Assembly (NCBI GenBank): GCA_963827275.1
Contig: CAWHAA010000007.1
Span: 96,001 to 160,000, forward strand
Direction of reading: 5' to 3'
Length of the DNA: 64,000 bases
Source: an uncultured Spirochaetota bacterium
Lineage (GTDB): Bacteria > Spirochaetota > UBA4802 > UBA5550
Below, one piece after another: positions 16,679-47,192 of the stretch. The position numbers were made by a program, and so were the translations under genes. Position 1 is the first letter of the stretch; every line of letters starts with the position of its first letter. The notes beneath the pieces were generated by a model. That model made no database searches. It saw only the letters and a list, made by a program, of their open reading frames with translations, and was not told where the DNA came from.

Positions 16679-16854
16679 GGATAACCGATAACTATCGGCG
16701 GGATAACCGATAACTATCGGCGGGATTACCGATAACTATCGGCAGGATAACCGATAACTATCGGCAGGATAACCGATAACTATCGGCAGGATAACCGATA
16801 ACTATCGGCGGGATAACCGATAACTATCGGCGGAATAACCGATAACTATCGGTA
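16679..16854. repeat. tandem array of 8 x 22-bp units, consensus GGATAACCGATAACTATCGGC(G/A)
   Basis: Units start at 16679, 16701, 16723, 16745, 16767, 16789, 16811 and 16833; invariant palindromic core CCGATA-AC-TATCGG; lies between convergent genes. Confidence 0.97.
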
Positions 16855-39273: not shown

Positions 39274-39328
39274 ATCCTACCGATTTTTGTGATTTTGTAA
39301 AATGGGAGTGGGGGTCAGAGCAAAATAA

Positions 39329-39347
39329 TACCGATTGTTATCGGTTA
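39329..39347 (-). repeat. dispersed copy of the 22-bp array motif
   Basis: Minus strand TAACCGATAACAATCGGTA, 18/19 identical to array unit 8. Confidence 0.8.
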
Positions 39348-46607: not shown

Positions 46608-46625
46608 ATTACCGATAACTATCGG
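46608..46625 (+). promoter_or_regulatory. single copy of the array palindrome in a divergent promoter region
   Basis: ATTACCGATAACTATCGG, identical over 18 nt to array unit 3; flanked by AAAATT/AATTTT. Confidence 0.8.
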
Positions 46626-46700
46626 AATTTTTTCACTTTTTATCTCGCCTGTTCGTTTAATTTATGAAAATTATTTTATATGAAAATGCGGGAGATAATT

Positions 46701-47192
46701 ATGATTATTGAAACAACGCTCAATATGCACGTCGAAATCCTCGAAAGAATCGAATTTGCGTCAAAAAGATTGAATAAATCACGGATGTATATCATCCGCA
46801 TGTTGCTGGCCAAAATGATAGAAGATGATAAGAAGTTAAAGAGAATGTGGTCTCCGGTGAAATATCAAGACAGGGACATGTCGGGTAATTGGCATGTGTT
46901 TCATTTGACGTTGCGGCAGGATGAATATGAGTATGGACTTGATCTGCGTAAAATTTACAGGATGTCTTTGTCGGCGGTAGTTGCCTATGCGGTCGATAAA
47001 TACTTGGATGAGATTGTCTTGAAATTTTCGAAGCTGGATGATGAAGCTATAACCGATAACTATCTATATAAAAATTATATTATTGCTTACAGACTTGTTG
47101 AAGGAGTACATTCCTGGCGAATCTACTGGGGGTATACCCACAAAGACTTATTCAAACCCGCCGTTGGAAATATCCACGCGAATTCTATCTGA
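46701..47192 (+). CDS. hypothetical protein, predicted tandem ribbon-helix-helix DNA-binding protein (resembles Leptospira DUF1564 proteins)
   Basis: GGAG RBS; two strand-helix-helix patterns (ETTLNM/..SRMYIIRMLL and VFHLTL/..SLSAVVAYAVDKYL) linked by KYQ; family assignment by eye. Confidence 0.62.
   Translation: MIIETTLNMHVEILERIEFASKRLNKSRMYIIRMLLAKMIEDDKKLKRMWSPVKYQDRDMSGNWHVFHLTLRQDEYEYGLDLRKIYRMSLSAVVAYAVDKYLDEIVLKFSKLDDEAITDNYLYKNYIIAYRLVEGVHSWRIYWGYTHKDLFKPAVGNIHANSI

Follow-up and report, generated by a model that had tools for sequence, protein, structure and literature searches.

What does a small protein do with a palindrome that stands upstream of its gene, recurs within its reading frame and is repeated eight times in tandem elsewhere on the same stretch of chromosome? 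The stretch, 64,000 nucleotides long and hereafter called the window, had been annotated from its letters alone. That sequence-only reading assigned the gene two ribbon-helix-helix (RHH) units and proposed that the protein represses itself and coats the array as a chromosome-organizing, partition or decoy module or, alternatively, that the motif marks the ends of a mobile cassette. All the features that it listed are in place in the window (Table 1). The upstream copy (46608–46625) matches unit 3 of the array exactly over 18 nt, the in-gene copy (47049–47064) matches the remaining units exactly over 16 nt, and the gene is AT-rich, with a GC content of 0.38 against ~0.56 for the genome. ATG 46701 is the likelier start, given a ribosome-binding site at 46690–46694 and a database form of the protein (P0002) of 163 residues; it lies 76 nt from the upstream copy, where ~75 nt had been given.

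What had been missed is a third site in the window and the genome-wide extent of the palindrome, which we call site A. With up to two mismatches allowed, the window holds 20 strand matches at 11 places; 0.54 are expected, and none of 100 shuffles reached the observed count. The array consists of eight copies of CCGATAACTATCGG at 22-bp spacing (16685–16852) and is neighbored by a CsgG/LpoB-like gene and a weak β-barrel match, and the RHH gene by a short-chain dehydrogenase gene and an unnamed ORF.

Table 1. Positions of the RHH gene, its sites and related features in the window.
Feature	Position	Strand	Remarks
Tandem RHH gene	46701–47192	+	163 aa; longest ORF 46680–47192, 170 aa; one of 10 paralogues
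Upstream site A	46611–46625	+	Abuts the A/T tract of the putative promoter
Putative promoter	46626–46659	+	A/T tract 46626–46633, TTCGTTTA element 46652–46659
In-frame site A	47052–47064	+	Codes T-D-N-Y in a low-confidence loop; codons ACC GAT AAC TAT
8 × 22-bp site A tandem array	16679–16854	+	Between two convergent genes
Third site A in the window	39330–39345	−	One mismatch
Motif B (TTGCTCTGACCCC)	39311–39323	−	Word bounding the genome's Y1/TIRYT-type transposase genes

A predicted tandem RHH protein and its in-frame site

An AlphaFold2 model built on a 38-row alignment (mean pLDDT 78, mostly 85–95 in the RHH units) matches the two strand-helix-helix patterns noticed in the sequence. The first unit comprises strand 9–17 and helices 18–31 and 35–48, the second strand 71–79 and helices 80–93 and 97–122, and a C-terminal β-hairpin follows; within the core, order is lowest in the T-D-N-Y loop (pLDDT <50 at 121–131). 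Structural matches likewise support a tandem RHH fold. The ten best Foldseek matches in the PDB are chains E, F and G of F-plasmid relaxosome entries (best E 8.8e-4), and VIA-align ranks the same F relaxosome chain first (Z 8.6, rmsd 3.5 over 103 residues), followed by AvtR, a CRISPR-related protein, single-chain Arc and DndE; the viral structural matches are archaeal-virus RHH proteins. From chain size and the available part of a relaxosome study (PMC12117103), we infer that the matched chains are TraY, described there as three monomeric tandem-RHH molecules that bind as a train. Like F TraY, the protein has a predicted single-chain tandem RHH fold (residues 8–117); unlike TraY, to which it is 14–16% identical, it has an extra C-terminal hairpin and is chromosomal, with no relaxase or oriT linked to it.

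A Pfam search with the protein (P0001) returned nothing significant, and RHH_5 matched 14 of 38 homologues at E values up to 1 (best 1.6e-6). Its named homologues are hypothetical proteins of 'Spirochaetes bacterium', and no catalytic domain was found in it; residues T13, N15 and H75 are conserved. We predict that it belongs to the RHH superfamily as a single-chain tandem type, the two units forming a pseudo-dimer, and that it very probably recognizes the site as duplex DNA by means of its two β-strands.

Ten paralogues, at 38–45% identity to P0001, were found in the genome by tblastn. All 10 carry the in-frame site, at T-D-N-Y or a close variant. With the second copy inside the reading frame, and only 1 of 86 loci having one immediately past the gene, the motif does not delimit a cassette. 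Across 39 genes the codons are ACC in 29/29, GAT in 37/37, AAC in 35/35 and TAT in 33/33 cases, and no other conserved degenerate column in the same genes exceeds 0.89; that four codons are invariant while other such columns vary shows selection on the DNA. Site A stands upstream in 22 of 86 gene loci. In the clade of the window gene, as drawn on a quick gene-family tree, its position is constant in 13 of 15 rows (one of the remaining two is unreadable there). The supposed conservation of the upstream palindrome thus holds for this subfamily, where it would fit self-regulation, and not for the paralogues of the genome at large, 3 of 10 of which have such a copy.

The family is large (750 clusters or representatives at 50% identity) and patchily distributed, with genome-specific expansions and 1–78 copies per bearing genome. 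Recent copies in three genomes (G026, G008 and G088) share only the promoter, the gene and up to ~70 nt beyond, and no terminal repeats were seen around them. The in-gene codons are relaxed in the largest expansions, G026 with 78 gene matches and G008 with 41 (in 16 G008 genes, for instance, AAC 0.81 and TAC 0.75), and no dispersed word was found in either (100 kb each, plus a degenerate 12-mer scan too noisy for dialect scoring). Self-tagging is thus not needed for the gene to spread, and codon fixation appears tied to the presence of dispersed sites; because the N-Y residues are kept where the codons relax, the peptide may matter too.

A phage or plasmid origin was set aside after pattern-seeded and single-sequence searches of limited sensitivity found no relative among IMG/VR contigs or PLSDB plasmids. 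Another word, AAAAACCGCTTT, is repeated 10 times in 100 kb of G026, which also has a longer composite repeat. In the genome of the window, one paralogue (contig C1:130541–130978) lies directly upstream of a umuC-like gene (C1:129262–130530), overlapping its start region, and a umuD/S24-like gene is nearby.

Site A in the genome and across the class

The 4.13-Mb assembly contains 145 exact and 65 one-mismatch matches to CCGATAACTATCGG, where an order-5 Markov model expects 0.11 exact ones. The center is AC/GT in 145 of 148 perfect-arm palindromes; of the variants with other centers, two occur 0 times and a third twice genome-wide. Conservation is greater in the left arm than in the right. The matches form 94–98 clusters, depending on the pattern, many of them between convergent genes or deep in coding sequence. 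Spacings group at 19–22 and 42–44 bp, near two and four helical turns, with peaks at 22 bp (23 times) and 42–44 bp (60 times). The array around which the sequence-only reading built its module is therefore one of ~95 clusters; homologous spots hold 0–5 copies, and the 1–5 sites found there in four of five relatives mark the 8× array as a local expansion. Within the genome no compensatory pairing of the arms is evident, the outer pairs being at marginal expectation, and the predicted fold of the site is weak (−5.9 kcal/mol), with a terminator-like score on both strands. From one lineage to another the two arms do change in concert, as a hairpin would require but as a palindromic protein site would too. 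Two large repeat proteins (C7:270753–276072 and 277392–283758) carry the site four to five times each in frame, coding for P-I-T-I in their repeats.

The pairing of gene and site is well supported, and the co-occurrence implied by the earlier proposal is borne out among 122 genomes of the class. The gene family is present in 56 of them. ACCGATAACWATCG has at least 4 copies in 38 of these 56 and occurs at most once in each of the 66 gene-less genomes, and the site tracks the gene across seven families with 0 exceptions among the gene-less. The split recurs within families f1, f4, f6 and f7, whose members, as kin, are not independent. In the other 18 gene-bearing genomes the exact word stays below 4 copies, and several of the 38 contain no more copies of the word than of the gene; low counts may in some genomes represent in-gene copies only. 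Site number varies from 4 to 179 within one genus.

The word also has dialects. In G018 and G088, the genes mostly spell the site L-D-N-Y; GGATAACTATCH is the form dispersed there, present 21 times in G018, 20 times in G088 and 30 times in G009, against 2 and 4 copies in two gene-less genomes, and one G018 gene has a perfect variant both upstream and in frame. Lineages with a changed in-gene spelling show changed strand residues. ParB does not follow the word: five genomes with and without it have one main ParB each, and a linked or extra ParB was rejected as the site binder on these grounds. In the genome of the window, no ParA or ParB gene adjoins a paralogue or a site, and the search for canonical parS revealed no cluster, only a single two-mismatch match. 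The main parA–parB pair lies far from dnaA, ~750 kb in G101 (C2:2174202–2175327) and, here, on another contig than dnaA (C5:712579–713704).

Many copies of the word sit in ordinary genes at codons that permit it. Among called genes, the motif codons are used in 18 of 34 P-I-T-I (0.12 expected), 6 of 19 P-I-V-I and 10 of 16 T-D-N-Y peptides, while control peptides are mostly near expectation, two being mildly raised. In long genes, at internal positions and with no motif B nearby, permissive peptides have motif codons in 23 of 66 cases on site-rich contigs (1.0 expected) and in 6 of 51 on other contigs (0.8 expected), counts that depend on a crude gene caller and in which overlapping peptides double-count some sites. 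In this genome the exact word lies in the stretch of carB that codes for the conserved G-P-I-V-I-G-Q; among the rows listed (150 of 175, counted by eye), the exact word appears in 10 of ~51 from gene-bearing and 0 of ~56 from gene-less genomes. Eight of the ten come from one genus, and nine site-bearing f6 genomes lack the carB word. Insertion cannot explain such synonymous gain in carB and other ordinary genes, and the word appears to be acquired by point change in coding sequence.

The earlier suggestion of kinship with DUF1564 of Leptospira also finds support, as a remote relation. The PF07600 model has 0 matches in the 122 genomes of the class, and none to P0001; in a different family, presumably Leptospiraceae, it matched 34 of the 61 genomes sampled. 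With deep alignments, hhalign relates the two families at 72% (E 3.5e-5, 99 columns) with both RHH units collinear, against 3.7% with shallow alignments, and the atlas feature score for DUF1564 is 0.90. We consider remote homology over the whole tandem RHH moderately supported. At the analogous position, DUF1564 genes read GGA GTT CC in 15 of 17 cases and GGA GGT CC in 2 of 17, one row in which a downstream copy had been picked being left out. GGA GTT CC is half of the palindrome GTAGGAACTCCTAC and its variants, whose central four bases are those of site A. Palindromes of this type number 13–476 in 22 genomes of a DUF1564-rich genus, 2–37 in 24 genomes of a genus with 1–3 DUF1564 matches and 0–2 in 30 genomes of a genus without a match. 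The two families are thus alike in their collinear tandem RHH units, Y-Q linker, multiple copies and codon-fixed half of a genome-wide palindrome, whereas ours lacks a Pfam-model match and has different strand residues and different palindrome arms.

Long tandem arrays of 35–36 bp on the Leptospiraceae palindrome occur in two genomes of one genus (g140; G367 and G361, loci L090 and L091). In another genome (G228, L102:6610–9068), a gene called DUF1564-like by resemblance, not by Pfam, is divergent from an orphan parA–parB pair, and three perfect palindromes lie in and around the module, one within the gene and two flanking parA–parB, which is the one hint of partition ancestry.

A shared upstream element and the competence genes

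An A/T tract followed ~20 bp on by TTCGTAT-like letters is present upstream of 69 of 86 gene loci. The same pattern precedes the window gene, other paralogues, radC, comM, ssb, the comEC operon, recA and Y1 transposase genes. On a matrix whose training left this genome out, all 10 paralogues score at least 13.3 and radC ranks at the top. The top 55 of this matrix include comM, pcrA, the lolA-x-comEC operon, an integrase gene, recA, ssb and four Y1 transposase genes, as well as the operon before recN and queC-comF; comF and recN were named by a short signature, and the first gene of the latter locus we take to be queC. Of 2,069 called gene starts, 20 (~1%) score at least 12, and the matrix also matches unrelated genes.

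In five other genomes, 5 of 10 upstream regions of radC and comM score at least 10, and 9 of 10 transposase loci that could be parsed have the element (19 of 29 could not). dprA here has the core letters only, and a wider comparison of dprA upstream regions (1 of 30) says little about the element, since 29 of the 30 genes appear to lie directly behind another gene. The element was not evident before DUF1564 genes. It is absent before lexA, dinB and uvrA, and SOS control was rejected on that basis. A sigma-70 scan found 0 promoters at the window gene, and none of the 17 sigma-70-type candidate genes in the genome was matched to the element.

The element-bearing genes are the usual late-competence set, and the element is probably a competence-type promoter. 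One shared element before uptake and recombination genes, as in a late-competence regulon, is thus found in this genome and partly elsewhere. It resembles, yet differs from, the streptococcal SigX box TACGAATA, which has a T-rich upstream tract in the available text of PMC6001120. A tyrosine integrase gene with an integron-type N-terminal domain (C5:39545–40690, L170) stands under a competence-like element. Most genomes of the class, this one included, have two DprA-family matches, one strong and one weaker.

Competing readings of the site

We tentatively favor, at somewhat below even confidence, a competence-linked site-binding protein that promotes the retention of tagged DNA during natural transformation. 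A TraY-like tandem RHH protein, made when the DNA-uptake and recombination genes are switched on, would bind the palindrome and, on the resident chromosome, hinder strand exchange at bound sites. Tagged alleles would resist replacement and untagged alleles could be overwritten by tagged donors, a drive that would spread the word by point mutation wherever codons allow. The internal site would let each gene copy protect itself, and dispersed gene copies would pile up; local arrays would be rewarded too, including those interleaved with Y1 transposase ends, and the 8× array would be a by-product, not a centromere. A duplex-binding protein made with the uptake machinery, synonymous site gain and a site within the gene are read most simply as biased inheritance in transformation, and such a drive would explain why the in-gene site is fixed, why dialects and arrays exist, why the multi-copy gene spreads patchily and why sites mix with transposase ends. 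Transformation is thought of as a means of clearing inserted DNA, against which parasites are known to defend themselves (PMC12378983, in the available part of which no mention of RHH proteins or spirochetes was found). Drive alone explains neither the avoidance of origin and terminus described below nor the expansions without sites.

The closest analogues are the DNA uptake sequences of Neisseriaceae (DUS) and Pasteurellaceae (USS), which, in the available parts of two studies, accumulate in coding regions at permissive codons and form lineage dialects (PMC2817400, PMC3630211). Site A shares with them hundreds of copies, over-representation in coding sequence through synonymous codons, dialects and a link to competence genes. 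Unlike them, it is a near-palindrome limited to chromosome arms, with ~200 copies here and no even spread of hundreds to thousands of copies over the genome; its partner is a multi-copy, cytoplasmic-looking RHH protein with no evident export signal, not a pilin; and any bias would act after uptake.

A bolder version, which we hold possible though rather unlikely, makes this family and DUF1564 a selfish, competence-induced family of site-binding proteins that rigs spirochete transformation inside the cell, each lineage marking its own word. Tagged loci and the gene itself would be protected, and the word would on this account have been written into hundreds of genes and spacers.

An arm-specific chromosome organizer is an unlikely but substantial alternative. 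The protein would bind the sites so as to compact, anchor or shield the arms, or to block division over them, during the competent state, a role like that of MatP, SlmA, Noc and RacA in their own domains, and selection for binding, not drive, would place sites in genes. Those factors are single-copy and conserved. The placement of the sites in three genomes, taken from metagenome-type assemblies whose order may contain errors, fits this reading. In G101, one contig of 4.8 Mb, 1 of 91 sites falls within 0.71–1.92 Mb around dnaA (1.42 Mb) and none at 3.59–4.33 Mb, around the antipode; G102 has none at 296–1294 kb around dnaA (634 kb); and the genome of the window has 1 cluster on the dnaA contig (341 kb), 39 on C5 (810 kb) and 0 on C6, which a marker and the skew suggest to be the terminus region. 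Spacings near two and four helical turns and the lack of strand polarity (42 leading versus 55 lagging) are also in its favor; the same lack of bias led us to reject a Chi- or KOPS-like polarity. As with MatP/matS and SlmA/SBS, a dedicated protein is coupled to a domain-restricted palindromic site that is often coding, and SlmA sites are likewise domain-limited palindromes mainly in coding regions, as the available text of PMC3116907 has it.

Several observations speak against this role. Macrodomain systems have a single gene conserved throughout a clade, whereas this family is absent from 66 of 122 genomes and otherwise has 1–78 copies, and sites vary more than fortyfold within one genus. Unlike the systems of MatP, SlmA, Noc and RacA, this one has a patchy, multi-copy gene with its own in-frame site and a competence-type upstream element, and its sites avoid both origin and terminus. 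The fixed site inside every paralogue is left unexplained. Because the gene copies avoid the same regions that the sites leave empty, the pattern may simply reflect where accessory DNA is tolerated.

Transcription regulation is an improbable main role: the proteins would control their own and some competence genes, the other sites being decoys or neutral. In its favor are the upstream copies, which keep a constant position in the subfamily of the window gene and elsewhere come immediately after the CGT element. Before comM, ssb, an ORF6N gene and one unnamed gene, the nearest site stands 68–83 bp upstream of the element. Three of the top 10 non-RHH matches to the element have a site, versus 64 of 1,633 starts (p = 0.006), an enrichment that fades at lower thresholds (4 of 39, p = 0.07; 4 of 67, p = 0.34). 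Only a handful of the clusters are covered in this way, many others lying between convergent genes or deep in coding sequence, and 7 of 10 paralogues lack an upstream copy. The retention drive and the organizer or regulator readings are not mutually exclusive, and the upstream copies would probably add self-regulation whichever is right.

It is more doubtful still that site A is a REP-like mobile repeat, a palindrome spread by Y1 transposases with the RHH protein as a TraY-like DNA-bending helper beside motif B. This word lies within 60 bp of 118 of 210 sites, alternates with site A in 42–44-bp units and bounds Y1 transposase genes, of which two copies are identical with different flanks. Those two (C4:514852–515448 and C1:83227–83823, L174) have same-direction B bounds and a competence-like promoter, and the unit appears to have been mobile recently; a sixth, divergent Y1 transposase gene (C4:639666–640223) is flanked by 22-bp tandem repeats of another word. 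The upstream element common to transposase and RHH genes adds to the case, as does the best fold match, TraY, an accessory of an HUH relaxase in the available text of PMC12117103. Both words share with REP/RAYT and TIR/TIRYT systems dispersed or clustered intergenic repeats of variable copy number. It is B, however, that flanks and co-occurs with a Y1 HUH transposase and, with its transposases, fits the TIRYT description in the available part of PMC3733652. No perfect site A flanks the six transposase genes, and site A instead follows the RHH gene, which is non-catalytic, and is gained by synonymous change as well, the gain in carB not coming from insertion and no compensatory pairing of the arms being evident within the genome. 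The words also separate between genomes: G062 and G068 have 73 and 71 copies of A and no B, and the gene-less G078 and G059 have 33 and 17 copies of B and no A. The transposase group occurs in 101 of 122 genomes, among them most of those without the RHH gene; none of the group turned up in G062. Word B belongs to a system separate from site A.

That the site belongs to another protein and is merely carried by the RHH genes is very unlikely. A 7-2-7 palindrome is also a format read by helix-turn-helix dimers; RHH binding is itself a prediction, and the partners excluded are ParB and the Y1 transposases only. Against this stand the tracking of the gene by the site in seven families, without exception in the 66 gene-less genomes, and the changes in strand residues that accompany changed in-gene spellings. 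Least credible of all is the module of the sequence-only reading, in which the protein coats the 8× array as a centromere or decoy: RHH proteins are centromere binders in type Ib and type II partition, and the G228 arrangement points the same way, but here a linked NTPase and a single centromere cluster are lacking, no site adjoins either a ParA or a ParB gene, no extra ParB accompanies the motif, few paralogues have the upstream copy, the array is not conserved, hundreds of other sites exist and the limited searches of virus and plasmid collections found no relative.

In its apparent working the system resembles uptake-sequence or macrodomain systems, but its protein and anatomy differ from theirs, and it lies outside every family tested. 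In the literature covered, outside which fall subscription journals and supplements, we found no description of it, no function for Leptospira DUF1564 (PF07600 appears in passing mentions only) and nothing that joins RHH proteins with transformation, competence and spirochetes. Our analysis assigns a precise candidate DNA site to an unnamed protein family, a pairing that extends to DUF1564, and supplies a candidate competence promoter and regulon for a class of spirochetes. Both leading readings concern one small protein and a 16-bp site, and either would be new: a sequence drive acting within the cell during transformation, or a factor that marks chromosome arms only. If the selfish reading is true, the family would represent a second, unrelated origin of uptake-sequence-like drive and would supply a cause for the abundant palindromic repeats of Leptospira.
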